Below, piece by piece: positions 4,735 through 32,995 of a DNA stretch of 33,851 nucleotides. The stretch's first letter is position 1; the number at the start of each line of letters is the position of its first letter. The notes under the pieces were generated by a model. That model worked only from the letters and a program-made list of their open reading frames with translations. It did not search any database and was not told the DNA's origin. The stretch comes from Calditrichia bacterium (GTDB taxonomy: Bacteria > Calditrichota > Calditrichia > RBG-13-44-9), in NCBI GenBank assembly GCA_027039625.1, contig JALWDQ010000633.1, positions 1-33,851 on the forward strand. Direction: 5' to 3'. The translations under genes and the position numbers were made by a program.

Positions 4735-4802
4735 GTTAATGATTACTGGGAGGCGGAGGAATTGAACAAGCCTTATTGCCTGGCTCTCTTGAGGTGAGCC
4801 AC

Positions 4803-4845: not shown

Positions 4846-4922
4846 TTCTACATTACATGGAATAATCTTTCTTCGTATCAAAATAATACAGCTTGAGATG
4901 GTACTCTAAAATTATCAATACG

Positions 4923-4978
4923 AAATTCTAAACTACAAATCCCAAATTTCCAATCCCAAACAACAAATTCCAAATTCC
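4923..4978 (+). repeat. degenerate heptanucleotide tandem array 2 (AAATTCC-like)
   Basis: Eight in-phase heptads: aaattct/aaactac/aaatccc/aaatttc/caatccc/aaacaac/aaattcc/aaattcc. Confidence 0.85.
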
Positions 4979-5025
4979 GATAATTTAATAGATTCTTTCC
5001 GAATCTAATATTTTCCTTATTATTA

Positions 5026-5092
5026 ATTCGTGCATATTCGTGTGATTCGTGGTTAATAATTCGTGGGTAAGTTTCCATCCGTACAATTCGTG
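5026..5092 (+). repeat. ATTCGTG heptamer cluster 2 (iteron-like)
   Basis: Exact attcgtg at 5026, 5036, 5045, 5059 and 5086. Spacing is 10, 9, 14 and 27 nt. Confidence 0.85.
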
Positions 5093-5165
5093 GTTTTATT
5101 GATTCCGGCGATCTCGATAATTTTAAAACCCAATTCAAAATTCTTAATTCAAATTTCAAAATTAT

Positions 5166-5248
5166 TTCTGTCGTCCTTACAGGACTTAAAATGATGGGTG
5201 GAATTCACCTTCCCATGGCTGAAGGCCATGGGCTAAATTCTGTCGTCC
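5166..5248 (+). repeat. hairpin-containing repeat module bounded by an 11-nt direct repeat
   Basis: ttctgtcgtcc occurs at 5166-5176 and 5238-5248. An 8-bp hairpin pairs cccatggc (5212-5219) with gccatggg (5225-5232). A small hairpin gtcct/aggac lies at 5173-5185. Confidence 0.6.
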
Positions 5249-5354
5249 ACTCCGTGAACTCATCCCCTGCCAGCCGATAGTTTTTAAATCCTAAGAATCT
5301 ATTCCGACCACCTGGAGTATCCGGTTAAAAAATATCTTTTCTAATTATTGAAAC

Positions 5355-5471
5355 AAATCCCAAACAACAAATCCCAAATCACAAACGAAATTCCAAACCC
5401 CAAATCCCAATTAACAAAAAACAAATTCCAAGTCTCAAATAACAAGCATCAAATTCCAAATTCCAAATGAT
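5355..5471 (+). repeat. degenerate heptanucleotide tandem array 3 (AAATTCC/AAATCCC)
   Basis: About 16 heptads, with one 5-nt irregular unit at 5383-5387. The array ends ...aaattcc/aaattcc/aaatgat. Confidence 0.85.
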
Positions 5472-5511
5472 TAAGAGAATTTTTACACAATCTAATCATT
5501 TCTTTTTTTTC

Positions 5512-5564
5512 ATTCGTGTTTATTCGTGTGATTCGTGGGCAAATATCAATTCTTTTAATTCGTG
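5512..5564 (+). repeat. ATTCGTG heptamer cluster 3 (iteron-like)
   Basis: Exact attcgtg at 5512, 5522, 5531 and 5558. Spacing is 10, 9 and 27 nt, identical to cluster 1. Confidence 0.85.
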
Positions 5565-5692
5565 GTTTGAATTTTTAGAAGCTTTTGTACTCGCAAAATC
5601 AGTAACCCTCCAGCATGGGGTTTCGGGAAGAAAGCACCAAAACCATATTGGTTTTTTTCGTATTGTTTTTAAAGGGTGAATTATTTATTTTT

Positions 5693-5729
5693 GCGTGGCA
5701 TCCGTAAAAGAATGCCGCTTTATTTTTTT
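5693..5729 (+). terminator. terminator-like hairpin plus T-run just upstream of gatC
   Basis: gcgtggcat (5693-5701) pairs with atgccgc (5712-5718) with one bulge, followed by tttattttttt. Confidence 0.4.
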
Positions 5730-5749
5730 CTGAAAAAATACTTAAGATC

Positions 5750-6036
5750 ATGAAAGTATCCTTGCAGGAAGTGGAGCATCTGGCGCACCTAGAGGCGCTG
5801 GAATTTACTCCGGAAGAGAAGCAAAAAATTGCCACTGAACTGGAACGCATTCTGGAATATGTGCGTCAGCTGGAAGAAGTGGATACCACCGGCGTTGAAC
5901 CGCTGGAGCATCCCGGTGGCCCGGTGCAGGCTATGCGCCCGGATGAACCTCAACCTTCTCTTCCAGTAGAAGAGGCATTACGCAATGCTCCCGATCGGCA
6001 AGGAGGTTTCTTTCGGGTTCCCAGGGTGATTCGTAA

Positions 6037-6040
<4 letters not shown>
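5750..6040 (+). CDS. gatC: Asp/Glu-tRNA amidotransferase subunit C
   Basis: 96 aa. Typical GatC sequence (VEHLAHLEALEFTPEEKQKIATELERILEYVRQLEEVDTTGVEP). Confidence 0.85.
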
Positions 6041-8407
<2,367 letters not shown>

Positions 8408-8420
8408 AAAGGGAATTGGT

Positions 8421-8795
8421 ATGGCAGTTTACCGGGTGAAAAATTTTGAGGAAATTGACTTTGTGGCAGTAAATCCCAGCGAAGATGTGTTCGAGCTGGA
8501 AAATGGTAAAAAATATCGATTTAGCGATCATATTTGCCATAATTGCTGGTCGGGGGGGACCGTACTGGAAACGGTGGAAGGGGAAACGGATTATTTTTGC
8601 CTGTTGTGCCAGAACCATTTAACCTGGCGAAAATTTGAAAACGATTTTCTTCCGCCCACCGGGGATATGCTGGATTTTCTGCTTCCGGTGGAATGGGGAG
8701 AAGAAGAATTAAATGAGTGGTGGAAAGAATACAAAATTAAACGTCTTGCCGAGGAAGAGGTGAAGAATCAAATCCTGGCTTCCGGCAAAGAATAG
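8421..8795 (+). CDS. hypothetical CxxC...CxxC zinc-ribbon protein
   Basis: ORF with CHNC-x20-CLLC. The ATG at 8421 is preceded by aaaggga. An alternative ATG at 8400 overlaps the pyrG stop codon. Confidence 0.5.
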   Translation: MAVYRVKNFEEIDFVAVNPSEDVFELENGKKYRFSDHICHNCWSGGTVLETVEGETDYFCLLCQNHLTWRKFENDFLPPTGDMLDFLLPVEWGEEELNEWWKEYKIKRLAEEEVKNQILASGKE

Positions 8796-16916: not shown

Positions 16917-18266
16917 TTATTTCGTCTCGTTTTCGTTGGACTCGGAGGGTGCAGCTTTTTTAGTGCTCTTTTTCTGGTACCGGGCGGGATTCAGATCCGG
17001 CATTTTCCAGATATCATTTTCTACAACGTGGTAGAAGCGTTCTTTGAATTCCTGCAAACTAATTCCGGCAGTAGCGGCATATTTAGCCAGCTCGTGGGGA
17101 TCCTCAAAATCCTCCTTGGTGAGGCGAAGCATGTACCGGCGGGCAATCTGGTAGTACTCCGAGTGGATATCCACCATCCGAACTTTGGTTCGCTTGGTTT
17201 TAGGATCAATGATTTCCTTGAAGAACATGGGAACAAAATGCCCTTCCTGAATAGAAACCATAGCCGCGTTCCCTCCCTGGAGTAAGAACTGAGCGGCACA
17301 ATATCCCAGATCCCGGGTGTATTCCATGTCGTAAGGAATGGGGTCAGCGCAGCGCAGCTCGTAGCCAATATTTTTAGCCACGATGGTGGTTTTAATACCA
17401 AACTTCTTCAATTCATCCTGAACATGGAATTTTAAGATTTCTCCAAAATTAACCTCTGCCAAACGGATGTTGTCGTGTTCATCCCGTTCGATGTTAAGAA
17501 GCACTTTGAGATCTTGCGGATCCAGTCGCTCCACCAGCCCTTCGGCTAGAATCGCTACCCCATCGGGACGCCCATAGCTTAACCGCTTGATGATGGCACC
17601 TACCAGAATATCAACAATCTTTTTCAATCGAATCTTTTGTTCGGGAAATTCTTCCGGAATCACGGTCAGGGTTGCACCCGCCGCTTTTCCAATTCCCAGA
17701 GCCAGATGCCCTGCTTTTCTCCCCATGGATACCACAAAATACCAGCGCGAGGTGGTCTGGGCATCCACCATTAAACTTTTTACAATCTCCACACCCAGAT
17801 GCCGTGCGGTCTGAAATCCAAATGTACAGATGCCGTAAGGCAAATCCAGGTCGTTATCGATGGTCTTGGGAACGTGCACCACCCGGATGCGGCCAGCAGC
17901 TTCCTCTTCCACTCGCATGGCACTGTAGGCAGTATCATCTCCACCGATAGTAATGAGCTTATCCACGTTCAGGCGAAGCAGAGAAGTAACCACATTTTCC
18001 AGATGTTTTTTATTTTTTGTGGGGTTTTCTCGGGAAATGCCAATGTATGAACCACCCCGGAAGTGAATCCGGCTTACCTGTTCGATGGTGAGATGTTTTA
18101 TGTGAGAAATATCGCCTCGCATAATCCATTTGAAGCCGTCCTTAATGCCAATCACTTCCACTCCTTCCAGAATACTTCGGATGGTAGCAGCACTGATGAC
18201 GCTGTTAATTCCAGGTGCCGGACCCCCGCCTACCAGAATAGCCAGATTTTTCGGTGCAATCGTCAT
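16917..18266 (-). CDS. pfp: pyrophosphate-dependent (or ATP-dependent) 6-phosphofructokinase, long PFK-A family form
   Basis: ILVGGGPAPGINSVI, IGGDDT, PKTIDNDL and MGRKAGHLAL motifs. Strong SD (aaggagg) upstream of the ATG. Confidence 0.88.
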   Translation of the reverse strand: MTIAPKNLAILVGGGPAPGINSVISAATIRSILEGVEVIGIKDGFKWIMRGDISHIKHLTIEQVSRIHFRGGSYIGISRENPTKNKKHLENVVTSLLRLNVDKLITIGGDDTAYSAMRVEEEAAGRIRVVHVPKTIDNDLDLPYGICTFGFQTARHLGVEIVKSLMVDAQTTSRWYFVVSMGRKAGHLALGIGKAAGATLTVIPEEFPEQKIRLKKIVDILVGAIIKRLSYGRPDGVAILAEGLVERLDPQDLKVLLNIERDEHDNIRLAEVNFGEILKFHVQDELKKFGIKTTIVAKNIGYELRCADPIPYDMEYTRDLGYCAAQFLLQGGNAAMVSIQEGHFVPMFFKEIIDPKTKRTKVRMVDIHSEYYQIARRYMLRLTKEDFEDPHELAKYAATAGISLQEFKERFYHVVENDIWKMPDLNPARYQKKSTKKAAPSESNENETK

Positions 18267-18773
18267 CGTGTACCTCCTTTCGTTAAAAACTCGCTAAATC
18301 TACCATCATTTCCTGCGAAATTCAAGGTGAAAACGTTTACCGGGTTGGGAAAAAGAGATAAAATAAGAGTGTATGGATATGGAAATGTGTAACTATAATA
18401 GAGAGTCTAAGGCTATCATGTTAGTTTTGTGTGAAATGTAACTTTTAATCCGTAACTTTACATTTCGGTGGTAGTGAATTAACGTTTGGAGGAAGATAAA
18501 AAAATTAAATAATAATTGATTTAGTTTAATATGCAATTATGTAAAATGAATGCACTTGATTTATATTAATTTTAAGATTATTATTTTAGAAAAGGTAACA
18601 AGAATTTATTTTAAATTGAAATTTAAAAAAGGTCTTGAATAATATAAATAAAATTAAAAACACTAAATAATTAACCTTTCCTTTCTAATAAAATATTTGA
18701 TTTGTTAATTTTAGCTTTAAACTTTTAAAAGGCAAATAATGGGAATTATCAAAACAAATAGAGAAAACTGCTC

Positions 18774-19520
18774 ATGAAAGAGAGAAAATATCGTAGACCA
18801 CCTATTGTGGAAGTAGTGTGTGAATTCCGATTTAAACATTCTTCCCCATGGGATGCTACAATTCCTGGACTTATCTATCATGAAGTAAAGAAAAAATTTA
18901 CCAGACGTCGTACTTTACGCAATGTGGGTATGCATGTTCAGGTTGAACATAAAGGTGTATTATTTCAGCCCCGGATGGAAGAAGGGACTCAATTTTTACA
19001 GGATGACGAACGGGCTTTTTTACAGTTACAACCGCGCCGTATTTCTGTTCATCATCTGGCACCCTATCCGCACTGGGAAGGATTTAAACCGTTGATCCAG
19101 TTAGCATATAAAGCATACTTAAAAGTTGTCCCTGATGCCACTATACAGCGGATTGGACTTCGTTATATTAATAAAATTAATTTCGATACACCAGAAGTTG
19201 ATTTATCAGCTTTTTTTAATTTTTATCCCTACGTGGGTAGAAAACTACCACAACGTTATACAGGATTTAATCTTCAATTGTTATTTCCCCATGAAGAAGG
19301 AAGAGACGCTCTTCAGATGCGTTTGAGCAACGCACCCCCAGAAAAAGAAAATGCAGCTTCCATTCTGTTAGACATTGATTATTTTCTAATAGATTCAAAG
19401 AATCTTTCTTCAGAAAGGGGATTGGAATGGGTGGAGAAAGCGCATGAAAACATATTGGCGGCATTCGAAGGGGCTATAACCGATAAATTACGACATCAAT
19501 TTGAGGAGGAGAAAGTATGA
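18774..19520 (+). CDS. TIGR04255-like uncharacterised protein
   Basis: The N-terminal signature YRRPPIVEVVCEFRF and the roughly 250-aa length match my recollection of the sporadically distributed TIGR04255 family. Low G+C. Confidence 0.55.
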   Translation: MKERKYRRPPIVEVVCEFRFKHSSPWDATIPGLIYHEVKKKFTRRRTLRNVGMHVQVEHKGVLFQPRMEEGTQFLQDDERAFLQLQPRRISVHHLAPYPHWEGFKPLIQLAYKAYLKVVPDATIQRIGLRYINKINFDTPEVDLSAFFNFYPYVGRKLPQRYTGFNLQLLFPHEEGRDALQMRLSNAPPEKENAASILLDIDYFLIDSKNLSSERGLEWVEKAHENILAAFEGAITDKLRHQFEEEKV

Positions 19521-19963
19521 CATTTGCCATACCTTCATCATTGGGTATTAAAAATATAGATCTAACATCTGGTTCTGGTAATCCACTCTGGGTTGATGAA
19601 GAAATAAATCAGTGGCAAAATAAAACAACTTCACAATTTGAACGTATTAGCATTTTGCCACAATTTTACAAAATTAATCAGCCAGGGGAAGTCTTTAGAT
19701 TTCTATATGACCATCCTGGTTTAATTGAAGTTGTGTTGGAAGCAGTGGAGATTTTACGAAATGTATTCGGACCGGATGCATCTCTGGAACTGGAATTGGT
19801 AACGGATCCAGAAGCGGATGAATCCGAGTTATTTGCCCTGGTAGAAGTCGATATGACTCCTGAAGTAGCCTTGCAAAAACTGGAGGAATTCGATCAAAAT
19901 TGGCTTCTGGATCGAGAAGAAATTACTAAGGGACTTTTTAATGTAGATGTGACGTTTCGATGA
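19517..19963 (+). CDS. hypothetical small protein with acidic C-terminal half (possible antitoxin or adaptor)
   Basis: ATGA overlap with the upstream stop codon. The acidic C-terminal half (LELELVTDPEADESELFALVEVDMTPEVALQKLEEFDQNW) looks like a small antitoxin-like protein. Confidence 0.5.
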   Translation: MTFAIPSSLGIKNIDLTSGSGNPLWVDEEINQWQNKTTSQFERISILPQFYKINQPGEVFRFLYDHPGLIEVVLEAVEILRNVFGPDASLELELVTDPEADESELFALVEVDMTPEVALQKLEEFDQNWLLDREEITKGLFNVDVTFR

Positions 19964-20334
19964 GATTTCAATGGGAAACATTCATTAATCTTGCTGAAAG
20001 GCTACATCAGGAAAGTGAATCCTTTGTGGAAACAGAAGCCTATCAGCGCTCGGCAATTAGCAGAGCCTATTACGGTGCATTTGGATTGGCACGCGAAATT
20101 GCAGTACGTGAAGGTCTTTCTTTAACTTTTACGGGGGAAGACCATAAAAATGTGGAACAGCATTTCCGGGGAAATTCACAAAAATTTCGTAAACAGATAG
20201 GAATAGAGCTGAATCGTTTAAGACGACTTCGGAATAAAGCAGATTCTGCGGAATCAATCTCGGGTTTGCCGAAGGAAACGCGAAAGGCTTTGGTGCAAGC
20301 ACGAAATATTGAATCTAATTTAAAAAAGTTGTAA
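19960..20334 (+). CDS. HEPN-like four-helix protein
   Basis: ATGA overlap with the upstream stop codon. RSAISRAYYGAFGLAREIA resembles classical HEPN helix 1. LRRLRNKADS resembles the HEPN R-x(4-6)-H region, but the His is missing. Confidence 0.5.
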   Translation: MRFQWETFINLAERLHQESESFVETEAYQRSAISRAYYGAFGLAREIAVREGLSLTFTGEDHKNVEQHFRGNSQKFRKQIGIELNRLRRLRNKADSAESISGLPKETRKALVQARNIESNLKKL

Positions 20335-20415
20335 ACAAAATTATTAGGAATGAATATATTTAGCACTGTGAGGTATTAAAATTTTAATTTTTTTAGAAAA
20401 TAGACAGGTAACGTA

Positions 20416-21543
20416 ATGCCAGAATATTTTATGTTAGAGCGGATTTTACTGCAAGGGTATAAATCAATTCATGAAGCAGATATTGAGCTTCGCCCTATTA
20501 ATGTGCTGATTGGAGCAAATGGTTCTGGCAAATCCAATTTTATTAGTTTATTTAAGTTTATGAACCGTTTAGTCAATCAGGATTTGCAGAAATATGTATT
20601 ACAATCGGGTGGAGCTGACCAGTTCCTTCACTATGGACGAAAGAAAACTGAGCGACTTCATATTGAACTCTGGTTTAGTAAAAATAATAAATTGGCAAAT
20701 GGTTATGAATGTTCATTAATACCTACGTCAAAAGATTTATTAGCATTCGAAAAGGAAGTAATTTATATTCACAACCGTGAAAAATATAAAAAACCTTACA
20801 TTATTGAAAAAACATTTCGTGTTCATGAAGAAACAATTATACCTAAATGGAAACAAAAACGTGTCCGTGTGTCGAAATATATCATGAAGGCTCTTCAATC
20901 GTGTAAATTGTATCATTTCCACGATACCAGTGATTCAGCCAGAGTTAAACAAACAGGCGATATTCACGACAATCTTTTCCTAAGACCAGATGCCTCGAAT
21001 CTTGCCGCATATTTATTTCTGCTTAAAAAAACGAAACCAGACTATTATCACAATATTGTAGAAACCATTCGTCTGGCTGCACCTTTCTTTGGGGATTTTA
21101 TTCTTCGTCCCTCACCTTTTAATCCTGATAAAATACGTCTGGAATGGAAAGAGAAAGGTTCAGATGTTCTTTTTGGCCCCAATTCACTTTCGGATGGAAC
21201 GCTTCGTTTTATCTGCCTCACCACTCTTTTTATGCAACCACCCGAAAAGTTGCCATCAACTATTGTACTGGATGAGCCTGAACTTGGGTTACATCCCTAT
21301 GCCATAGCTCTTCTGGCAGATATGGTTCGGAGTGTTGCCAAACATACGCAGGTTATCCTGGCAACCCAGTCGGTAACTCTTGTAAATCAATTCCTCCCGG
21401 AAGACATTCTGGTTGTTGACCGAATTGAGGGGAAAACCATCTTCCGACGTTTAACAGAAAAAGAGATGGCTTCCTGGCTTGAAGACTATGGTCTGGGAGA
21501 TTTATGGGAGAAAAATTTGCTGGGGGGACGTCCTGCGTTATGA
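20416..21543 (+). CDS. ABC/SMC-type ATPase (AAA_21/AAA_15-like, OLD/AbiL/PARIS-type ATPase)
   Basis: Walker A GANGSGKSN, ABC signature LSDGTLRF, Walker B IVLDEPELGLHP, switch region ILATQS. An alternative ATG lies at 20431. Confidence 0.85.
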   Translation: MPEYFMLERILLQGYKSIHEADIELRPINVLIGANGSGKSNFISLFKFMNRLVNQDLQKYVLQSGGADQFLHYGRKKTERLHIELWFSKNNKLANGYECSLIPTSKDLLAFEKEVIYIHNREKYKKPYIIEKTFRVHEETIIPKWKQKRVRVSKYIMKALQSCKLYHFHDTSDSARVKQTGDIHDNLFLRPDASNLAAYLFLLKKTKPDYYHNIVETIRLAAPFFGDFILRPSPFNPDKIRLEWKEKGSDVLFGPNSLSDGTLRFICLTTLFMQPPEKLPSTIVLDEPELGLHPYAIALLADMVRSVAKHTQVILATQSVTLVNQFLPEDILVVDRIEGKTIFRRLTEKEMASWLEDYGLGDLWEKNLLGGRPAL

Positions 21544-22208
21544 CAAAAGTGCTTATTTATGTAGAGGGACAAACGGAAGAAACTTTTGTTCGTGATTTAT
21601 TAGCGCCGTATTTCAAACAAAAATGCAGTATTTATTTAATCCCTTCGTTAGCAAGAACAAAACGAACCAGAGCCGGACGAGCGTTTAAAGGTGGGATTGT
21701 TTCATACGGTAAAGTTAAAAAAGATATTTTGAAGTTATTGGGTGACAGGAGTGCTGCATTAGTTACCACTATGTTAGATTTTTATGGTCTCCCCAATGAT
21801 TTCCCTGGAAAGAAATCCCTCTCCTCAGGTTCCCCAACTGATCGTGTTCAACATTTAGAAAAGGCATTTGGGGAGGACATAGCCAGTACTCGTTTTCTCC
21901 CTTTCCTTGTTTTGCATGAATTTGAAACATTTATCTTTGTGCAGCCTGAAAAACTCGCCGAAGCATTGCCCGGATATCTGACGGAAGTTCAAAATTTAAT
22001 TAAAAATGTTGGTCACTTAACTCCTGAAGAAATCAATGAAGGCAGGGACACCCATCCATCAGCACGAATTCTGAAACTATTTCCTACTTATCAAAAAAGA
22101 TTGCACGGACCGCTTATTATCAAAAAAATTGGTCTGAATTTGGTCAGGAGCAAATGCCCTCATTTTAATAACTGGTTCTCTAATTTAGAAAAATTATGCC
22201 CTGGTTAA
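21541..22208 (+). CDS. DUF4276 family protein (TOPRIM-like)
   Basis: The ATG at 21541 overlaps the ATPase stop codon (ATGA). N-terminal IYVEGQTEETF, central LHEFETFIF and C-terminal HPSARIL...CPHFNNW match my recollection of DUF4276. Confidence 0.65.
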
Positions 22209-22221
22209 TACGGAATGATTT

Positions 22222-22251
22222 CTTGAACCGTTCTTTCTTCAAGTGTTTTTT
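22222..22251 (+). terminator. weak terminator-like hairpin after the DUF4276 gene
   Basis: cttgaa (22222-22227) pairs with ttcaag (22238-22243), followed by tgtttttta. Confidence 0.3.
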
Positions 22252-22328
22252 ATTCAAAATAATTTTTGCGAGGCTTGTATGCTGTTTTTTCGCACATTAC
22301 CTTCCGGAAGGGAATAATGTTCCACCCA

Positions 22329-23084
22329 TCACCCCCCAAACTGTTCCAGAGCAATCTCCCGTTTTTTAATGCGAGAATTTACCTGATGGTACAGATCGCC
22401 GGTACCCAGATCGACCCATTCTCCTCGGTGGACATACACACTCAAAGGTTGTTCCTCGGCCAGTGCGGGTAAATAGAAGTCAGTGATAATGGAAGAGAAC
22501 TCCGGTCGCAGATATTTTCGAGCTTGGGGAGTAAGAATCTGATAGCCCATAAAAATCCCTGTCTGCATTTTTTCGCCAGGAGGATTTCCCTTTCCCAGAA
22601 AACCCCGATGGTGGAATGCTTTATCAAAAATCACCAGGTTGTAATCCTGGTAGTTACGGGAAGGGAACACTGCCATGGTTGCTAAAGCAGGATGCTGGCG
22701 GTAATGGTGAATGAATTGAGGAAGAGAAATATCCGAAAGGATATCGGAATTCACGGTGAGAATCGTTTCTCCTGCGAAAAAATGTTCGGCGAAAGCAATA
22801 CCTCCACCGGTACCCAGGATTTCAGGTTCCATGCTGTAAAGAATTTCCAGCTCCCCCTGGTAATGGGTGTTTAAATGCTGGATAATTTTCTCTCCCTGGT
22901 GGTGCAGGTTAATCACGACCCGCTGGAAACCGGCTTTTTCTATTTTCTGAAGAATTAAATCCAATAATGTGGAGTGCCCCACGGGGAGCAAGCACTTGGG
23001 CAGCTCGCGCGAAAGTTCCCCCATCCGTGTGCCGAATCCCGCAGCTAAAACCATTGCGGTACGTATTTCAGTGCTTTCCTTCAT
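22329..23084 (-). CDS. sugar-1-phosphate nucleotidyltransferase (NTP_transferase family)
   Basis: MVLAAGFGTRMGELSRELPKCLLPV N-terminal motif. 251 aa. Substrate is not assignable. Confidence 0.8.
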   Translation of the reverse strand: MKESTEIRTAMVLAAGFGTRMGELSRELPKCLLPVGHSTLLDLILQKIEKAGFQRVVINLHHQGEKIIQHLNTHYQGELEILYSMEPEILGTGGGIAFAEHFFAGETILTVNSDILSDISLPQFIHHYRQHPALATMAVFPSRNYQDYNLVIFDKAFHHRGFLGKGNPPGEKMQTGIFMGYQILTPQARKYLRPEFSSIITDFYLPALAEEQPLSVYVHRGEWVDLGTGDLYHQVNSRIKKREIALEQFGG

Positions 23085-23190
23085 CGTGTTGTCTTAGATC
23101 CTTCTGCTAAACAAATTACAATCCATTTGATTTAAATTTAACCCAAATATATATTCAATCAAAATGTGAAAGCAAAAAAGGACTCTACGC

Positions 23191-24147
23191 ATGAAACGAA
23201 TTCTGGTAACGGGCGGCGCCGGTTTTCTGGGCTCTCATCTGGTGGAACGCCTTTTGAACGAAGGAAATGACGTTCTGTGTCTGGATAATTTTTTCACCGG
23301 TTCCAAACGCAATATTCTGCATTTAATGGACAATCACCGTTTTGAGCTTATTCGCCACGATATTACCCAGCCCATTTTGCTGGAAGTGGACGAAATTTAT
23401 CATTTTGCCTGTCCCGCTTCACCTGTCCATTATCAGTACAATCCCGTAAAAACAATTAAAACCAATGTGATGGGTACCATACATATGCTGGGACTGGCCA
23501 AGCGGGTGAAAGCACGGATTTTACTGGCATCTACTTCCGAGGTGTACGGTGATCCCCAGGTCCATCCCCAACGGGAGGATTACTGGGGACATGTGAATCC
23601 CATTGGTATTCGCAGTTGTTATGATGAAGGCAAACGGGTGGCCGAAACGTTAATGATGGATTACCATCGGCAGAACAATGTGGATATTCGCATCATCCGG
23701 ATTTTCAATACCTATGGTCCTCGCATGGCTGCCAACGATGGGCGGGTGGTAAGCAATTTTATTATTCAGGCGTTAAGAGGAGAGGATATCACAGTTTACG
23801 GCGATGGAAGCCAGACTCGCTCTTTTTGCTATGTGGATGATTTGATTGAAGGTGCTGTGAGGATGATGAATCAGGATGGTTTTATCGGACCCGTCAATCT
23901 GGGAAATCCCAATGAATTCACCATTCTGGAACTGGCTGAGAAAGTGATTCAGTTAACCGGTTCCCGGTCGAAGATTGTATTTAAACCGTTGCCCCAGGAT
24001 GATCCCACCCAGAGGCGACCGGATATCTCTCTGGCTCGCCAGAAATTAAACTGGGAACCCACGGTGCAACTGGAAGAAGGGTTGAAGCGTACTATCCATT
24101 ACTTCGATCGGTTGCTACGGGGTGAACCATTAATGCCCGGGCAGTGA
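23191..24147 (+). CDS. UDP-glucuronate decarboxylase (UDP-xylose synthase), SDR family
   Basis: [40 protein letters not shown] and [10 protein letters not shown] are characteristic of the UXS/ArnA-decarboxylase clade. Confidence 0.88.
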
Positions 24148-24177
24148 GAAAGAAGTCAAATAAAATTAAAGGCTTTT

Positions 24178-25857
24178 ATGAAAAAACGTGTGTTAATTAT
24201 TCTGTTAATGGTTGCTCTGTCCTTCCCCCTCCTGGCGGGAGAAAGTATCCCTCCTTACCACTGGGTGTGGAATTATTTGAACTATTTGAAGGTAGCCGGG
24301 TATCTTCCGGAACTGGATATGACCAATGGACCGACGGACCGGGAAGTAATAGCTGGCTATTTGTTACATATTGACCCAGAAAAAATTCCAGAAGGTTCCC
24401 GGGAGTGGAAGATGGTGCGCATATTGTTTCGTGAATTTGCCGAAGAGATAAAAGAAATTGGGAATTCGGGGGGCGATCGCTCCCGGGAATGGTTACAGAA
24501 AATCCTGGAGCGTTTGCAAATGGCTGTGCTTCCGGAAACGGTGCGTTCACGGGTACGCTTCGGAGCGTTTGGAATGGTAACCCCTCGTTACAAAAACGAG
24601 GATGTGACCACGGATTTTCAGTTTCACACCCGATTGGGATTGCAATTTGGAAAACGGTTTACCCTGTATAATAATATGAAAGTGTTTAATCATCTACCAA
24701 AGGGCTATATTGGTAAAACTACTCGTAAGCTGTATGCCTACACCGAACAAGCGTATTTGCAAATAAACGGGGGAATTTTTCGTTTCAAAATCGGTCGGGA
24801 TTACCTGGAGGTAGGACCCGGGCGTACCGGGAAGCTTTTGATGAGTGCGAACAGCCGTCCCTTCGATATGTATCACGCTCAGTTTGGTAAACGCTATTTT
24901 CATTTTTCGTTCTGGGGAATTATGCTGGATCCCCGTCCCATTGTGCAGGAGGAATTGAAACAGTACGCTCCGATTGCCCGACGTTACCTGAATGGCCATC
25001 GCCTTTCGGTGAATATTAAAAACCGTTATTTTGTAGGGGCTTCGGAAGTGATGGTATATGGCGGGCCCAATGCGAACTGGGATCTGGCATTTATGAATCC
25101 GTTTACTATTTATTACGGGCACCAGGCGAATGGACCGTATGCGCCTGGAAACGTGCTTTATTCTCTGGACTGGGATTTGTATTTACCGCACCAGGTAGAA
25201 CTTTATGGAGAGTTTTTGGTAGATGATTTTCAGGTGGATAAAAAGGTTCCGGGTGATCTGGAACCCAATGAACTGGGACTGCTGGTTGGGGTTAATTGGG
25301 CGAATCCTCTCCGGTGGGCCACTTCCATGCTGGGAACAGAATATGTTCAAATTCGCAATCGCACCTACAATGCCCCGGTGAATGATTGGGAAAAGTATCT
25401 TCACCGCAATCAGGTAATTGGATACTACCTGGGAAATGATTTTAAACGCTGGAGTATTCAACTGGAGAAGTGGGTGCACCCCGATCTCTCGGTTAAAGGA
25501 TTTGCTCATCTCATTCGCAAAGGGGAAGGAACGGTGGAAGGGGAGTTTAATACGGATTACATGAATTACACTGTAGAAGAAGGATATCACGAACCCTTCC
25601 CCTGGGGAATTGTGGAACGCCACTGGCAGTGGGGTGTGGCGCTATTTTATCGTCCCCATCCTCTGGCAAATATTACCTTGAATATTGCTTACAACGATTT
25701 CCATAATTACCAGCACGTAACCGGTGCTACGCATTCGGAAATAAGCGCTTCGGTAAACCTGTGGTTACAATGGGATACAGTATTCCGTACTTCCCGGCTG
25801 GAAATCGATCGCTGGCAACTGGAGTTCGATAATCCGGATTCGGAGGAGGAAAAGTGA
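24178..25857 (+). CDS. secreted/outer-membrane protein, possibly Wzi-like capsule assembly beta-barrel
   Basis: Signal peptide and a beta-rich, aromatic-rich 559-aa ORF. The N-terminal ...YLNYLKVAGYLPEL... resembles Wzi-family N-terminal regions. The family call is weak. Confidence 0.45.
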   Translation: MKKRVLIILLMVALSFPLLAGESIPPYHWVWNYLNYLKVAGYLPELDMTNGPTDREVIAGYLLHIDPEKIPEGSREWKMVRILFREFAEEIKEIGNSGGDRSREWLQKILERLQMAVLPETVRSRVRFGAFGMVTPRYKNEDVTTDFQFHTRLGLQFGKRFTLYNNMKVFNHLPKGYIGKTTRKLYAYTEQAYLQINGGIFRFKIGRDYLEVGPGRTGKLLMSANSRPFDMYHAQFGKRYFHFSFWGIMLDPRPIVQEELKQYAPIARRYLNGHRLSVNIKNRYFVGASEVMVYGGPNANWDLAFMNPFTIYYGHQANGPYAPGNVLYSLDWDLYLPHQVELYGEFLVDDFQVDKKVPGDLEPNELGLLVGVNWANPLRWATSMLGTEYVQIRNRTYNAPVNDWEKYLHRNQVIGYYLGNDFKRWSIQLEKWVHPDLSVKGFAHLIRKGEGTVEGEFNTDYMNYTVEEGYHEPFPWGIVERHWQWGVALFYRPHPLANITLNIAYNDFHNYQHVTGATHSEISASVNLWLQWDTVFRTSRLEIDRWQLEFDNPDSEEEK

Positions 25858-26738
25858 AGGGATTCCTCATCGGTCATTATACGGATGCTGCGGGAGGAAC
25901 CGGGTGCACGGTGGTATTGTGCCCCGAAGGAACCATTGGCTCCGGAATGGTCCGGGGTGCGGCTCCCGGTACCCGCGAGTACGCCCTGCTGGATCCCCAT
26001 CGTAAAGTGGAGGAAATCCATGCTGTATTTCTTACCGGCGGAAGCGCTTTTGGGCTGGATGCTGCCGCGGGTGTGATGCGCTTTCTGAAAGAACGGGATG
26101 TGGGATTTCCCACTATTTTCGGAAAAGTTCCCATTGTGCCTGCTGCGGTGGTGTACGATTTGTATTCGGGACAATCTGAATCTTTTCCCACCGCCGAAAA
26201 TGCCTATGAAGCTTGCCAGAGGGCAGAAGAAGGAGAACCCCCTCAAGGGCGGGTAGGAGCTGGAACCGGTGTGACTGTGGGGAAATGGGCCGGATTGGAA
26301 TATATGATGCCCGCCGGAATTGGCTGGGCGCAGGTCGTCTGGAAGAATGTTCAGGTGGAAGCATTGTCGGTAGTGAATCCCGTGGGAGATGTGGTGGACG
26401 GACAGGGAAACATTATTGCCGGTGCACAAAAAGACGGGCGTTTTCTGGCTCAGGGGAATCCCACCCTGCGCTGGGAACCACCGGATGTGGGATTGGGGCA
26501 GAACACCATCCTTACCGTGCTGATGACCAATGCCCGATTAACTAAATTGCAGCTTCATTTAATGGCAGATCGAGCGCATCTGGGAATTGCCCGGGCCGTG
26601 GTACCTTCGCACACTGCTTACGATGGGGATATCGTGTTTACCCTTTCCCGGGGTGAAGTACCGGTTAATTCCGAGACGGTTTTCGAAATGGGCATCGAAG
26701 CCGTGCGTCAATCGATTCTTAACGCTGTTTCCTACTAA
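25854..26738 (+). CDS. DmpA/S58 (P1) family aminopeptidase
   Basis: GFLIGHYTDAAGGTGCTVVL, RGAAPGTRE and FLTGGSAFGLDAA motifs. The GTG start overlaps the upstream stop codon (GTGA). Confidence 0.85.
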   Translation: MKGFLIGHYTDAAGGTGCTVVLCPEGTIGSGMVRGAAPGTREYALLDPHRKVEEIHAVFLTGGSAFGLDAAAGVMRFLKERDVGFPTIFGKVPIVPAAVVYDLYSGQSESFPTAENAYEACQRAEEGEPPQGRVGAGTGVTVGKWAGLEYMMPAGIGWAQVVWKNVQVEALSVVNPVGDVVDGQGNIIAGAQKDGRFLAQGNPTLRWEPPDVGLGQNTILTVLMTNARLTKLQLHLMADRAHLGIARAVVPSHTAYDGDIVFTLSRGEVPVNSETVFEMGIEAVRQSILNAVSY

Positions 26739-26755
26739 AGAAGACTTCTGTTTAA

Positions 26756-27739
26756 ATGCAAGTACATACCCAAAAATTTCGATTTGGATTGTTTTTAATC
26801 ATCTCTTCGCTTTCCCTGCTGGTGTTACTTGCTGTGGTTACCAGCCGCCATTTATTCAAGAAAACAGATAAATATTACATTGCTTACGAGAATGTGTCCG
26901 TGAGCGGCCTGGAAGTGGGGAGTCCGGTTAAATATCTGGGAATTACAGTGGGAAGCATTACGGATATTCGAATCGATCCCAAAAATGTGAATCGCATCAT
27001 TGTGGAAGTTTCGCTGGATAAAGGGACGCCCATAAAACAGGATGCGCGTGCGGATATTGCCAGCATTGGGATTACCGGCTTAAAAATGATTGAAATCCAT
27101 GGAGGCAGTAATCAGGCACCGCTCTTGAAGCCGGGGCAGTTCATCCGGGCAGGAACCTCTATGACCATGCAAATTACCGGCAAGGCAGAGGTTATTTCCG
27201 AAAAACTGGAACGATTGTTAAACAACCTGAATCAGGTAACTCAACCGGAAAAGATGGAAAAAATTTACCAGCTGGTGGAAAACGCCACCGCAACTTTTTC
27301 CCGGTTGAATCGCATCCTCTCCGAGAACAGCCAGTACCTGGCGGTAACTTTGAGACGGAGTGCTCATATTACCGCCCAACTGGATAGTATGACCGCTGCG
27401 ATGAAACAATCCGCAGAAGAGATTAATCGCTTAATCGTAAGTGATACGTTAAAAGATATTATTGTGAATGCCCGGGCTATTTCTGAAGAAATTAAAAAGG
27501 CGCGATTGGTAGATCTGGTGAAGCAGCTGGCTCTGGTGGTAGAGCGCACCAACAATATTCTTATTCAGGTGGAACACGATCTGGGGCAGGGCAGCCAGAC
27601 CTTCAACGAAAGTATGAAGGAATTGCGCAGCAGCCTGGAATACCTGAACCAGGTGAGTCAAATGTTAAGTGAAGATCCGTCAATTTTAATTCGCGGAACC
27701 AAACCTGGAGATATCCCGGATAAGAAACTGGAGAAATAA
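26756..27739 (+). CDS. mlaD: MlaD/MCE-domain protein with long helical C-terminal extension
   Basis: N-terminal transmembrane helix, MCE core (VSGLEVGSPVKYLGITVGSITDI), then about 200 aa of helical sequence. Confidence 0.8.
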   Translation: MQVHTQKFRFGLFLIISSLSLLVLLAVVTSRHLFKKTDKYYIAYENVSVSGLEVGSPVKYLGITVGSITDIRIDPKNVNRIIVEVSLDKGTPIKQDARADIASIGITGLKMIEIHGGSNQAPLLKPGQFIRAGTSMTMQITGKAEVISEKLERLLNNLNQVTQPEKMEKIYQLVENATATFSRLNRILSENSQYLAVTLRRSAHITAQLDSMTAAMKQSAEEINRLIVSDTLKDIIVNARAISEEIKKARLVDLVKQLALVVERTNNILIQVEHDLGQGSQTFNESMKELRSSLEYLNQVSQMLSEDPSILIRGTKPGDIPDKKLEK

Positions 27740-28360
27740 ATGCGCTGGCGAACCATTTTTGCAGGAATAAGTGTTGTTCTTTTGTTGCTGGGATGCAGCC
27801 GGAAAACCATCGAACACAAATATTATCTTATTGAACCACCGGAGATTCTCCCAAAGAGTACAGAGCCCATTCCGGAGAGGTTCAGGGACAAATTTTGCGT
27901 GATTCTCCCGGCGCGGATTTCTCCGCAGTACAACAAGCACAAAATTGCCCTGCGAACGGGAGAGAAAGAACTCTCGTACTATGTCTATCACCAGTGGGCG
28001 GTGTCTCCCCGGGAAGCGTTTACCCGTTTTGTGGAAATGGAAATTCAGAACGCACATCTTTTCCGTCGGGCAGGTACCGAGGTCTGGAAATACAATCCCG
28101 AATACCAAATATCCACCGATGTTAGTTATCTGGAAGTGCAGTTGGATGGAGAAAAGGCCATCGCGCACCTGGCAGCCCGGCTGGATTTAATCCGTCAGTA
28201 CGATCAGAAGTCCGTGGTAACCCATCAATTCGACCGCTTTCAACCGCTGCCCCGAAGAAATTTAGATCTGTTTGCTGTAACCATTTCCCGGATATTTCAT
28301 GAAGAACTCAACCAGTTCATTACCCGAATTCGGAAATGGGCGGAGGAATCGGAAAAATAA
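27740..28360 (+). CDS. ABC-type transport auxiliary lipoprotein (DUF330/PqiC-like)
   Basis: Lipobox LLLLGCS and a YYLIEP motif. The ATG immediately follows the mlaD stop codon. Confidence 0.65.
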   Translation: MRWRTIFAGISVVLLLLGCSRKTIEHKYYLIEPPEILPKSTEPIPERFRDKFCVILPARISPQYNKHKIALRTGEKELSYYVYHQWAVSPREAFTRFVEMEIQNAHLFRRAGTEVWKYNPEYQISTDVSYLEVQLDGEKAIAHLAARLDLIRQYDQKSVVTHQFDRFQPLPRRNLDLFAVTISRIFHEELNQFITRIRKWAEESEK

Positions 28361-30581: not shown

Positions 30582-32105
30582 TTACGATTCAATCTCCCGA
30601 AGTTCCTGCTCAATTCGTTTAACCACTTCTGCTTTGCGAAACAGGGAAATAAATTCATCGGGTGTTTCTGCCATCAACAATTTGCTGCGAATTTCTCCAT
30701 CCCGCAGAATACTGGCGATATTCGCCAGGGTTTGCAGGTGGCAGAGCCGCCGATTGGGAGAACTCACCACAGCAAAAATTAAATTTACCGGTTGGCCATC
30801 CGGGGAGTTAAACAATACCGGCACTTGTGGACGGTAAGCGATCACCCGCATCCGATTAATTATAGGAGAGATGACGTGCGGTACGGCAATCCCCGAACCG
30901 ATCCCGGTACTCAATGTGTTCTCCCTCCGGAAAAATTCGTGCACCAGCTGGGCATAGTTGGTGGTAATATTTAAATCCGCGAGCAGTTGACTGATTTCCT
31001 GCAAAATAGTTTCTTTACTGCGTGCTTTTCCATCCAGCACGATGAGAGAAGGCTCCATGAACTGACTCACCGAAACGAAGCGCACTCGCCGTTGTTTGCG
31101 GATTTCTTCCAGCAAAATTAAGTCTTCCTCACCCAGATTCCGTTTTTTCTGGTAGGCGGGCAGTAATATAATGGGAGCACGTTCGATTTCGTTGATTTCG
31201 GTTATTTCAATATCGTAGTATCCCAGTTCGTGGCGCACTGTGGTCATTAACTGGTTTCGAAGCGTATCCAGCAGGAAGAGCTTTCCCTGTTGTTCTGCCC
31301 GGATGAACATCACTCGCAAAATACCAAACGCCATTTTACGTAGAGCATCCAGTTGCTGATTGCGATGAATGCGGCATTTTAAATCCACCTGTGCCATGCA
31401 GGAGAGCCCAAATCGACTTTCGATGTCGATAAGCATTCCGGTTTCCACCCCGTATCCTGTAAAGAAGGGGATACGTTCCAGCAGTTCCCGGCGTCCGGCG
31501 TATTCACCAGAAAGGGGTTGATTGAACAGAGCCAGTTGCGGAAAGAGCAGGTTGAAGAGGGGTTTGGCCAGTATTTCAGTAACCCGTCCTCCACCCGTAG
31601 GAGCAAGCTTCATCCCCACCTTTATGGGACGCCGATAAAATCCTTTCACAAAAGAAATCTCGTGATGATAGAGTAGGGGACCGACCAATCCGGTAACGAA
31701 ATGCACATCCATATTGCGGATATCGCTGTCCAGCCAAACAATAATATCACCTCGTGTTACATACAAACTTTTCCAGAGGTTTTCCCCTTTTCCCCGATAA
31801 TCCCCTGTTTCCGGGAGTATCTCCGAGCTTAAATAAACGGTTGCTCCGGCTTTTCGGGCAATTTCCCGCGTACCATCGATGGAACCGCTATCCACAACCA
31901 CAATTTCGTCCAGCAGAGGGTAGCGGTCCATAAGCTGTTTTTTTAGTTTCTTAACAATCTTACCAATCGTAGCAGATTCGTTGAGGGTGGGTAAGCATAA
32001 ACTAATGCTTAGCTTTTGTTTCTCCTTCCGTCTAATAAGTTCGGGAATATTGTTGAATTGTGTGTATGAAAACGTACGTGTTTTAACCCAGGTATTTAAG
32101 TCCAT
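30582..32105 (-). CDS. glucosyl-3-phosphoglycerate synthase-like GT81/GT2 glycosyltransferase fused to a C-terminal PTS EIIA (fructose/nitrogen type, PtsN-like) domain
   Basis: GpgS-like motifs: LPTLNESATIG, VVVDSGSIDGT, GKGENLWKS, LDSDI, GGGRVTEILAKPL and QPLSGEYAGRRELLE. EIIA-2 motifs: GIGSGIAVPH and LIFAVVSS. The ATG at 32105 has a perfect SD (aaggag) 7 nt upstream, so the ORF-track TTG at 32129 is unlikely. Confidence 0.8.
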   Translation of the reverse strand: MDLNTWVKTRTFSYTQFNNIPELIRRKEKQKLSISLCLPTLNESATIGKIVKKLKKQLMDRYPLLDEIVVVDSGSIDGTREIARKAGATVYLSSEILPETGDYRGKGENLWKSLYVTRGDIIVWLDSDIRNMDVHFVTGLVGPLLYHHEISFVKGFYRRPIKVGMKLAPTGGGRVTEILAKPLFNLLFPQLALFNQPLSGEYAGRRELLERIPFFTGYGVETGMLIDIESRFGLSCMAQVDLKCRIHRNQQLDALRKMAFGILRVMFIRAEQQGKLFLLDTLRNQLMTTVRHELGYYDIEITEINEIERAPIILLPAYQKKRNLGEEDLILLEEIRKQRRVRFVSVSQFMEPSLIVLDGKARSKETILQEISQLLADLNITTNYAQLVHEFFRRENTLSTGIGSGIAVPHVISPIINRMRVIAYRPQVPVLFNSPDGQPVNLIFAVVSSPNRRLCHLQTLANIASILRDGEIRSKLLMAETPDEFISLFRKAEVVKRIEQELREIES

Positions 32106-32719
32106 TGCACACTCCTTCTTTTTGGGCAATTGGACATCCCTGTGATTAAATATCCCTTTTGCGCGAGGACCGTGAATTTCTTTTTGCGACGCGTCGTAAT
32201 CTCTATTGAATAAAACTTTCCGCGTGAGGTAGAGTTCCCGTATTAGAGAAAACGAAGTGATGAACCAATGACAAATTTTGAAAATAAAAATTTTGTTCTA
32301 AATCATATTCGGAAGAAAATTGGAAAACTAAATTAAAATGTGATGAAAATTTAGTCAGTTGCAGCGCAAATTTCGACAATCAGAAAAATTAGCATAAAAA
32401 GCCATAATTTTGTAACATCTTGTTTTTAATGAATATATGCTTTAATAGAAATTTTCAGGAATTGGGAAATTAAATGGCATGAAAGTTGTACAATATAATA
32501 GCAGAAGATGAATGGAGTGTAAAGATGTTAACGTCGAGAGATCAGATTAAGAAGATTTTTGAATTTCAGAAACGAAAGTCTCAAGAGTTAAAACGTCAGG
32601 TAACACATTCGTAGGCTCTGGCGCTCTGGTTAACGCAGAAATTGGTGGGGGAGCGTGGTAAAAAGAAAATGGAAAAATCATCTACCGAATTGTTCATTTA
32701 TTAGTAAAGGAGCAAGGAA

Positions 32720-32902
32720 ATGAATCAGAATAGCGATTTTCAAAGACGCCAACTGGATGCCATACAGAATTACTATTTAATGATGAAACATCGGATGAAA
32801 AAGAATATATCCCTGACGGATGCCATTATTTCCTGGTTTACGGAAGGGTATGCAGAGAAATTTCGGGAAGAGTATTTCCGTCAAAATACATTTGCCTCAT
32901 AG
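32720..32902 (+). CDS. hypothetical 60-aa protein
   Basis: ATG preceded by SD aaggag at about -8. A strong terminator lies about 60 nt downstream. No recognisable domain. Confidence 0.4.
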   Translation: MNQNSDFQRRQLDAIQNYYLMMKHRMKKNISLTDAIISWFTEGYAEKFREEYFRQNTFAS

Positions 32903-32962
32903 AGAGAGTTTCATAGGGCCTCCTTACCTTCAGGGATGAAATAGTTCTCCTCCTATCGACCG

Positions 32963-32995
32963 GGCCGGCACTGAAAAGTGCTGGCCTTATTTTTT
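32963..32995 (+). terminator. Rho-independent terminator
   Basis: A 10-bp stem pairs ggccggcact (32963-32972) with agtgctggcc (32977-32986), with one G-U pair. Loop gaaa, then ttatttttt. It overlaps the yjbQ stop codon on the opposite strand. Confidence 0.6.

Follow-up and report, generated by a model that had tools for sequence, protein, structure and literature searches.

In HEPN-MNT pairs (type VII), the HEPN toxin is neutralised by AMPylation of a tyrosine. PrrC is kept latent by a restriction-modification (R-M) enzyme and is released when a phage inhibits restriction. RnlA contains two TATA-box-binding-protein-like (TBP-like) domains fused to a HEPN domain; both its RNA binding and its activity depend on the TBP1 domain, and the antitoxin RnlB attaches to the HEPN domain (PMC8266594). 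AF0298-like HEPN-T/AbiV proteins have lost the histidine of the motif and kept its arginine, and an upstream histidine has been proposed to complete their active site (Anantharaman et al., PMC3710099). A pair of another kind, HEC-01 (Hma-embedded candidate 01), combines an ABC ATPase with a TOPRIM protein and was found embedded in Hma systems (Payne et al., bioRxiv 10.1101/2024.01.29.577857). These systems are the closest described relatives or analogues of the parts of an islet found in a contig of a Calditrichia bacterium (Calditrichota, RBG-13-44-9; contig JALWDQ010000633.1 of GenBank assembly GCA_027039625.1), whose 33,851 nucleotides (nt) constitute the stretch analysed here and are called the window. 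The islet lies between pfp and a nucleotidyltransferase gene, and its five open reading frames (ORFs), which together span 18774-22208, are labelled A, B, C, D and E in their order. On balance, it seems to carry two independent defence-type cassettes, a toxin-antitoxin-like (TA-like) ribonuclease (RNase) cassette, A-B-C, beside HEC-01, D-E.

A-B-C is an autonomous and widespread three-gene operon, independent of D-E. A search with A returned 466 homologues, and a profile scan with one genome per species gave 80 loci, which come from more than 20 bacterial and archaeal phyla (among the groups represented are Chloroflexota, Acidobacteriota, Nitrospirota, Thermodesulfobacteriota, WOR-3, Zixibacteria, Tectomicrobia, Bipolaricaulia, Spirochaetota, Verrucomicrobiota, Clostridia, Actinomycetota, Caldisericota, Armatimonadota and Methanothrix). 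In 77 of the 80 loci, A is followed by a same-strand ORF of about 120-280 amino acids (aa) and then, unless the contig ends, by a third of about 120-140 aa. The junctions in these 77 loci are mostly of -4, -1 or 0 nt, and B and/or C of the window are recognised by tblastn in most of them. Pairwise-identity matrices of the three proteins across 68 loci correlate (r=0.72), which indicates that A, B and C travel together; over the same loci, mean pairwise identity is 45% for A, 37% for C and 24% for B, the fastest-evolving member.

The distribution of D and E is different. Neither gene occurs at 74 of the 77 A-B-C loci, in sequence that reaches up to 10 kb to either side if the contig is long enough, and elsewhere they stand beside A-B-C only in the two nearest relatives, L006 and L007 (L-numbers denote the relative contigs and loci that were compared with the window). 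In these two, E is 39-54% identical to that of the window and A, B and C are 72-80% identical. A comparison of sibling strains leads to the same division. The window and L002 do not diverge (0%) over the stretch that runs from the chemoreceptor (MCP) gene upstream of pfp and takes in the leader, A and B; divergence is 0.5% in C, 23% in the C-D spacer, 8.4% in D (the most diverged gene), 2.5% in E and 0% in the tail. The jump at the C|D junction marks a recombination breakpoint that separates two modules. A preliminary description, made from the DNA alone, had left it at one or two immunity or TA modules; the absence of D and E from 74 of 77 loci and the breakpoint make them two.

Several single loci of the cassette deserve mention. 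In L006 (7219-10453; Calditrichaeota metagenome-assembled genome, MAG, J042), a tandem second copy stands between C and D and encodes A' of 216 aa, which is N-terminally shorter, B' of 148 aa and C' of 102 aa. The cassettes of L005 (binned as Heimdallarchaeota) and L007 (binned as Cyclobacteriaceae), both from the sample series S146, share about 80% identity both with the window's cassette and with the Calditrichaeota copy, which reflects either recent transfer or mis-binning. In the cultured Chloroflexus islandicus isl-2 (L048, 9986-10738), A is split into two ORFs and is a probable pseudogene, while B and C remain.

The third gene of the cassette is exchanged in part of the family. Seven loci carry an A of a distinct subgroup (at least 61% identical mutually) followed by an unrelated 119-aa protein that replaces B; in the five of them that are fully readable, the next gene encodes a 133-aa PIN-domain protein (Pfam PIN, E=3e-12 to 4e-14), the other two being cut by contig ends. 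Hidden Markov models of B and C do not detect the 119-aa and PIN replacements. Distant A-like genes (21-27% identity) also occur on viral contigs, in three cases followed by an ORF of about 173 aa and a protein of about 225 aa with an HNH-type motif, which falls just below the Pfam HNH threshold (E=4e-4). As a constant hub with interchangeable nucleases is an architecture typical of defence systems, the swaps mark the third gene as the effector. On one viral contig (L165, 99-3818), the A-like gene lies beside a Zot-like P-loop ORF and a serine-recombinase-like ORF, both recognised by eye from their N-termini; these neighbours hint at filamentous-phage-like elements that carry the A-like gene.

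The surroundings of the cassette were read from the nearest genes that encode 150 aa or more, covering the upstream side of 66 loci and the downstream side of 58. Among the upstream neighbours, nine match Pfam N6_N4_Mtase and ten the PADLOC type III methyltransferase; among the downstream ones, ten match Pfam ResIII and six the PADLOC type III restriction enzyme. Clustering puts mod genes of one family upstream of the cassette in 11 loci and res genes of one family downstream in every one of the eight that are readable there, three contigs ending after C. These mod-A-B-C-res loci are co-directional and come from at least six phyla, and in them res starts directly at the stop codon of C or overlaps it. 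Also among the neighbours are BrxL, R-M genes of types I and IIG, mad2, Aga_SIR2, DruE, Mrr_N, NACHT and AAA_21, and in L007 an Eco57I/MmeI-type methylase stands upstream of the cassette. Plasmid pTB1 of Thermus brockianus GE-1 (NZ_CP016313.1, L172) has a complete cassette at 6995-8689; a pAgo-type argonaute, a DNA methylase and VapBC flank it at one end, cas6 at the other. In that plasmid, the intact C-family HEPN ORF at 8297-8689, after the TIGR04255 and B-like genes, is missing from the PLSDB gene table, which is incomplete by design. The association with defence that had been presumed for the islet is thus supported for A-B-C by its neighbours elsewhere, namely the mod and res genes of type III systems, BrxL, R-M genes of types I and IIG, argonaute and cas6.

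Where the cassette is nested between mod and res, a back-up role like that of PrrC is suggested. It is conceivable, and here put forward tentatively, that TIGR04255 proteins are the conserved hub of a large unrecognised three-gene immune class, in which the middle protein evolves fast and the nuclease (HEPN, PIN or HNH-like) can be exchanged, and whose type III-nested copies would fire if restriction fails, like PrrC in type I R-M systems. The cassettes of PrrC/RloC and A-B-C are alike in that nucleases are nested in an R-M operon. They differ in that the hosts of A-B-C are type III (mod...res) and not type I, in that A-B-C consists of three small separate proteins with no ATPase, and in that most A-B-C copies, the window's included, are not R-M-embedded. 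A published 'guilt-by-embedding' survey labelled PrrC as nearly confined to type I R-M systems; the survey included Hma, BREX, DISARM and type I R-M but no type III systems, and this scope fits the absence of A and B from PADLOC-DB. Literature on HEPN proteins with tripartite, embedded or type III restriction themes contained no title or abstract that describes such a cassette. A-B-C appears to be an undescribed system of a known type. It brings together two uncharacterised protein families, is very widely distributed, swaps its effector and recurs in a type III R-M setting.

Protein A belongs to TIGR04255, as had been proposed: it matches the NCBIfam profile at E=1.4e-40 with 139.7 bits (cut-off 30), residues 5-244 covering positions 1-252 of 252. 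A profile search of 1.84 billion cluster representatives (clusters at 50% identity) found 11,875 such proteins at E<=1e-3, which make up the superfamily, and 1,205 at E<=1e-30, the close subfamily. No match to A was found in Pfam, PADLOC or PHROGs, nor among solved structures (PDB) by sequence. Its AlphaFold model (pLDDT 93.9, pTM 0.88) consists of two tandem beta-alpha-beta4-alpha repeats. In a Foldseek search of the PDB, the RepD replication initiator ranked first (E=3.5e-4), and TATA-box-binding proteins reached a probability of up to 0.99, the TM-scores of the search being only 0.24-0.41. Among viral models, an unnamed protein came first (TM-scores 0.48/0.57); TBP/TFIID-like proteins and mRNA 5'-phosphatases ranked behind it, and their TM-scores were poor. 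We read the predicted fold as a TBP-like pseudo-dimer without a close structural relative. The fold matches in the PDB (TBP, RepD, triphosphate-tunnel enzymes) are of topology level, with TM-scores of <=0.4, and allow no transfer of function. Across the family, 26 residues are invariant, including E13, E17, R126, R130, D200, D202, H224 and E232.

Protein B matches nothing in Pfam, NCBIfam, PADLOC, PHROGs or PDB sequences. In its model, residues 1-34 are disordered and are followed by three helices and a beta-beta-alpha-beta unit with pLDDT above 90; a search for structural neighbours gave none at E<1e-3 and only weak resemblance to OsmC/KH-like alpha/beta units. Across loci, the C-terminal 100 aa or so are conserved, and the N-terminus is highly variable in length. 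A single-sequence search finds eight close relatives, a profile built from locus-derived homologues 45. B is proposed to be an antitoxin or adaptor. An identity as an MNT-type nucleotidyltransferase, as in HEPN-MNT, was rejected, as B has no such match in Pfam, NCBIfam or PDB sequences and no such fold neighbour. The long homologues P0153 and P0154 were considered as B-C fusions and rejected, the extra length being N-terminal extensions. P0149 (candidate division KSB1; 170 aa, annotated as TIGR04255) joins the first 60 or so residues of A to the C-terminal domain of B and is apparently an in-frame deletion derivative of the A-B-C cassette.

Protein C had been called HEPN-like, and this is supported, though only once a family profile is built. 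The profile of 55 members matches PDB 9xbd_A, a 'HEPN domain-containing protein' (E=1.1e-9), and 9xbc (E=1e-9); AF0298 (2hsb; E=0.09) and a retron HEPN are matched weakly. Pfam HEPN (PF05168) recognises 29 of the 50 non-variant family members. The window's own C stays below Pfam thresholds and matches PADLOC HEPN_IX at E=4.5e-5 and PHROGs phrog_5176 at E=2.2e-12. Conserved motifs of the family are SRAYYAAF, a near-invariant histidine (H62) and R-N-x-x-D-Y; R91 and H62 are nearly invariant. Like the AF0298-like HEPN-T/AbiV proteins, C is without the histidine of Rx4-6H, keeps the arginine and has a second conserved histidine N-terminal to the motif. C is proposed to be an RNase toxin.

In the window, the R-N-x-x-D-Y motif reads RNKADS, with Ser96 in place of the tyrosine. 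Among 68 other aligned HEPN-type members, position 96 is Tyr in 67 and Cys in one. The responsible nucleotide, 20246, is C in the window and A (TAT) in L001-L004, and it is the sole difference in the entire islet from L001 and L004. The S96 allele is found on one contig only, that of the window, and Y96 alleles on several. Y96S may either abolish or deregulate the function of a toxic effector, or it may reflect a consensus error. In the related HEPN protein of the PDB, the motif tyrosine is present in one of the entries 9xbd and 9xbc and replaced by Phe in the other, so that the depositors appear to have studied this residue. The S96 allele of the window offers a natural loss-of-motif variant for comparison with the Tyr allele.

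Several traits of the cassette are TA-like: the genes are small, adjacent and coupled, they overlap by 4 nt, and B and C form an acidic-basic pair (pI, isoelectric point, 4.1 and 9.9). In the same sense, B is the fastest to evolve, and the one SNP of the islet strikes the near-invariant tyrosine of C, which is no more than an indirect hint at toxicity. A-B-C may accordingly be pictured as a tripartite TA-like, abortive-infection cassette. C would be a small basic HEPN ribonuclease, whose alternative active site might be formed by the arginine of R-N-x-x-D-Y and the upstream histidine. B, the acidic partner with a disordered N-terminal tail, would hold C inactive, and A would be the TBP-like constant hub, which might bind nucleic acid or a small ligand and thereby sense infection or present the substrate. 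Upon a trigger, possibly the lost function of the flanking restriction enzyme in the type III-nested copies, B would be displaced or degraded, and C would cut RNA and arrest the cell. In the window's copy, Y96S may leave the effector disabled or deregulated.

The closest analogy to A-B-C is provided by RnlA-RnlB and LsoA-LsoB (RNase LS), where two TBP-like domains, a HEPN domain and a small antitoxin would correspond to A, C and B, respectively. The parts are compared as analogues, with no homology implied. RnlA unites its TBP-like and HEPN parts in one protein, and the antitoxin gene comes last, whereas A-B-C encodes separate proteins in the order TBP-like, small acidic, HEPN. RnlA also has the residues R255, E258, R318 and H323 with a canonical Rx4-6H, in contrast to the R-N-x-x-D-Y of C, and it is not among the top 50 structural matches of A. 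Unlike in HEPN-MNT pairs, neither A nor B has a nucleotidyltransferase match by sequence or fold; from both these pairs and the AF0298/AbiV proteins, C differs in being accompanied by a third, larger protein, A.

The second cassette, judged by profile matches, is the PADLOC candidate HEC-01 from end to end. D matches HEC-01A (PDLC04175) at E=2.3e-149, its residues 6-373 covering positions 5-362 of 363, and E matches HEC-01B (PDLC04188) at E=4.6e-77 over positions 9-226 of 230. As had been predicted, D is an ABC-type ATPase (Pfam AAA_21, E=1.2e-27, also AAA_15 and SMC_N; Walker A GANGSGKS, signature LSDGT, Walker B VLDEPE) and E a DUF4276 protein (Pfam, E=1.4e-49), both confirmed by Pfam. The statement in the preliminary description that the gene combination could not be matched to a named system stands for A-B-C, which was matched to none, and fails for D and E. 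HEC-01 and D-E share an ABC ATPase gene followed by an overlapping DUF4276/TOPRIM gene; in contrast to the published pair, D-E is not Hma-embedded and is flanked by pfp and A-B-C upstream and by the nucleotidyltransferase gene. The embedding in Hma is the context of discovery of HEC-01 and not a requirement of the PADLOC model, and D-E is a further instance that adds little new. The divergence pattern centred on D in the comparison with L002 points to allelic exchange or rapid diversification around the ATPase gene.

DUF4276 is the Mad4 family, a member of the TOPRIM superfamily (PMC12065111), and is listed in the PARIS paper among the nuclease partners of AAA_15/21 ATPases (PMC11464382). D-E thus resembles PARIS (the ABC ATPase AriA with AriB, a DUF4435 TOPRIM protein) and OLD/Gabija in combining an AAA_15/21-type ATPase with a TOPRIM nuclease, and D matches AriA at E=3.6e-27. 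It is not PARIS, because DUF4435 is absent: E is DUF4276 and has no AriB or OLD-TOPRIM match, and D is far better matched by HEC-01A than by AriA, Old or GajA. A likeness to MADS lies in the matches of D to mad3 (PADLOC, E=5e-25; NCBIfam MAD3, E=6.4e-30) and in the family of E. The score of D with NCBIfam MAD3 (NF047739), 104.6 bits against a cut-off of 420 bits, excludes D-E from that system, and neither other mad genes nor a methyltransferase are present in the islet. If D-E works like PARIS and OLD, the ABC ATPase would sense a trigger and license the DUF4276 TOPRIM nuclease.

The islet as a whole is deviant in composition. The preliminary description had reported a sharp drop, which is borne out by sliding-window G+C, by G+C at third codon positions (GC3) and by tetranucleotide analyses. 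G+C is 36.5% in the islet and 47.2% in the rest of the window. The five islet ORFs have a G+C of 38.0-40.5% and a GC3 of 27.5-31.5%, as against means of 48.5 +/- 3.4% and 52.0 +/- 4.9% for the other 27 ORFs of the window, relative to which they have z-scores of -4.2 to -5.0 in GC3. In tetranucleotide usage, 18001-22000 is the stretch most distant from the remainder of the window (0.350, over a baseline of 0.13-0.17). An earlier hand count for 18481-18720 was exact (39 G+C in 240 nt, 16.3%); the 55-57% given for the flanking genes was too high, as pfp has 48.2% and the gene like that of UDP-xylose synthase (UXS) 47.5%. Low G+C alone is not unique to the islet, because the patches 4501-5500 and 32001-32500 are also low; neither is a coding islet.

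The closest relative found, among metagenome contigs scanned with the pfp protein, is L085, whose pfp protein is 93% identical. Its genes follow one another as Wzi-UXS-nucleotidyltransferase-pfp, and 193 nt separate the nucleotidyltransferase gene from pfp. By blastn, positions 1140-2514 of its reverse complement correspond to window 16971-18344 and positions 2626-8574 to window 22329-28287, so that just 112 nt of L085 lie opposite the islet. The question raised beforehand, whether pfp sits directly next to the nucleotidyltransferase gene where the islet is absent, thus has a positive answer in L085. This empty site, together with the composition, favours gain over loss and hence a horizontally acquired insertion between housekeeping genes, as had been supposed. 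The same islet is present at the same site in the near-identical metagenome and MAG contigs L001-L004, and the best matches of its proteins are in Calditrichaeota MAGs, which for horizontally acquired genes is no evidence of the host. Coordinates of the islet and its parts are given in Table 1.

Table 1. The islet and its features, in positions of the window
Feature	Position	Strand	Basis or remark
Inserted islet, 3.98 kb	18345-22328		blastn gap relative to L085; composition; tetranucleotide peak
AT-rich leader, 22% G+C (16% in 18481-18720)	18345-18773	+	Composition; promoter-like sites
A, TIGR04255 protein, 248 aa, pI 9.0	18774-19520	+	NCBIfam
B, acidic 148-aa protein, pI 4.1, without known family	19517-19963	+	Start overlaps stop of A (ATGA)
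C, basic 124-aa protein of predicted HEPN fold, pI 9.9, AF0298/AbiV-type	19960-20334	+	Family profile
Codon TCT, Ser96 of C	20245-20247	+	Replaces near-invariant Tyr of R-N-x-x-D-Y
C-D intergenic spacer, module boundary, 81 nt	20335-20415	+	23% divergence from L002
D, ABC-type ATPase, 375 aa, HEC-01A	20416-21543	+	PADLOC; Pfam; motifs
E, DUF4276 protein of the TOPRIM superfamily, 222 aa from ATG 21540, HEC-01B	21540-22208	+	Pfam; PADLOC
Non-coding insertion tail, ends at stop codon of the nucleotidyltransferase gene	22209-22328		Without counterpart in L085

All five ORFs are intact and, as had been described, lie on the same (+) strand with a single internal gap, the one between C and D. Of three ATGA overlaps noted earlier, those at 19517-19520 and 19960-19963 stand as placed; the third is at 21540-21543 instead of 21541, and it uses an internal ATG of an ORF that had been listed as starting at 21504. 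The best sigma-70-like match of the leader, at 18616-18643, agrees at 10 of 12 positions and is a consensus match only; the C-D spacer contains promoter-like matches at 20332-20360 and 20401-20430. Rfam gave no match in the islet at E<=1 and none in the whole window at gathering scores.

Of the explanations other than two defence-type cassettes, a plain addiction (post-segregational killing) module A-B-C, with no phage role, draws on the same acidic-basic pair of B and C and the same overlapping genes. The module would then stabilise the mobile DNA or R-M operon that carries it, and A would be a transcriptional autoregulator like omega of omega-epsilon-zeta or PaaR of paaR-paaA-parE. TBP-like saddles bind DNA, and such binding would suit A as a regulator; B has no recognisable DNA-binding domain, which makes a separate regulator plausible. 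Many loci lie among housekeeping genes with no defence neighbour, and the cassette also occurs on plasmids. However, the conservation of A far exceeds that of a typical repressor, and acidic or aromatic residues, not Arg and Lys, prevail among its invariant positions. That the cassette is nested time and again between mod and res of type III systems and is translationally coupled to res suggests functional integration with a defence system. We regard pure addiction as rather unlikely; addiction and anti-phage roles are in any case compatible, since RnlAB has both (PMC8266594). The conservation of A bears also on the possibility that it is an enzyme, which either modifies C at the near-invariant tyrosine (type VII-like, with A in the role of MNT) or makes or breaks a small-molecule signal, B being an adaptor. 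Its many invariant charged residues keep this explanation in consideration: among the 26 invariant positions, E13, E17, R126, R130, D200 and D202 alternate on beta-strands and probably point to one face of the sheet. Foldseek gives weak matches to triphosphate-tunnel enzymes (viral mRNA 5'-phosphatases at E of about 5e-4, Pct1 and YgiF at low probability), the tyrosine is near-invariant in C and is the residue that varies in the 9xbd/9xbc pair, and AMPylation of a tyrosine in HEPN-MNT pairs is a precedent. Yet A resembles neither nucleotidyltransferases nor any other known enzyme family, and the same hub occurs with PIN and HNH-like effectors, which lack the Tyr motif and thereby argue against a HEPN-specific modification. 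An enzymatic A seems quite improbable.

The co-directional layout with its single 81-nt gap, and the recurrence of A-B-C with D-E in L006 and L007 behind different upstream neighbours, would be in line with one system of five components. Such a system was rejected as very unlikely, because D and E are missing from 74 of the 77 loci and a recombination breakpoint lies at C|D, where sibling divergence rises from 0% to 23% in the spacer. In addition, HEC-01 was defined independently of A-B-C, the second copy A'-B'-C' separates C from D in L006, and E has diverged further than A-B-C in both L006 and L007 (39-54% as against 72-80% identity). It is scarcely credible that the islet is not related to defence at all, being a degraded remnant of a mobile element or a set of accessory genes of RNA metabolism or housekeeping. 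The lack of integrase, tRNA and repeats, the mutation of C at a conserved residue and the negative test of HEC-01 could be taken in that sense. Against it, the five ORFs are undamaged, and none of the proteins matches a metabolic or housekeeping family in Pfam or NCBIfam, in agreement with the preliminary description, which had seen no housekeeping gene among them; A-B-C, moreover, is sporadic over more than 20 phyla with its operon structure conserved and is repeatedly embedded in R-M operons.

The preferred reading, a TA-like RNase cassette beside HEC-01, also has to face a number of contrary observations. A resembles TBP in topology only (TM-scores 0.3-0.4), and as A is the most conserved of the proteins, with many invariant acidic and basic residues, an enzyme fits it better than a passive binder or phage sensor. 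A, B and C were tried as homologues of RnlA and RnlB and rejected, hhalign probabilities against E. coli K-12 RnlA and RnlB being <=0.3%. The canonical Rx4-6H motif is missing in the C family, and the RNase activity of the AF0298-type site is a prediction only (PMC3710099). The HEC-01 representative gave protection against none of the phages tested in E. coli (bioRxiv 10.1101/2024.01.29.577857). Most immediate neighbours of A-B-C are housekeeping genes, recognisable defence genes making up about a quarter; a majority of housekeeping neighbours is expected for a small mobile cassette. The signatures of mobility that were sought are absent: there is no tRNA in the window, there are no convincing flanking direct or inverted repeats, and none of the five islet ORFs matches an integrase or transposase family. 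Finally, the term TIGR04255 occurs in no paper of the searched library.

Two further regions of the window are of low G+C. At 4450-5570 (about 35%), between glycosyltransferase-like and gatC-like ORFs (named by eye), there is no long ORF; the region contains three copies of a composite repeat, about 455-465 nt apart, in which 7-nt-period CAAATYC runs are followed by clustered ATTCGTG(T/G)GATTCGTGGTT motifs. The other, at 32130-32986, is an intergenic region of about 850 nt with no ORF of at least 70 aa, and G+C is 33% for 32001-32500.

For the TIGR04255 family, which is uncharacterised, these results provide a testable context: a small partner and a nuclease always encoded behind it, horizontal spread across bacteria and archaea, and repeated incorporation into type III R-M operons. 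Thermus brockianus GE-1 is a cultured source of the cassette. If A-B-C is an immune module, A would represent a new hub protein fold for defence systems with swappable effectors, and 'guilt by embedding' would extend to type III R-M systems. The cassette would then also be a split version of the TBP-like and HEPN parts of RnlA, which may help to ask what TBP-like domains do for HEPN RNases.

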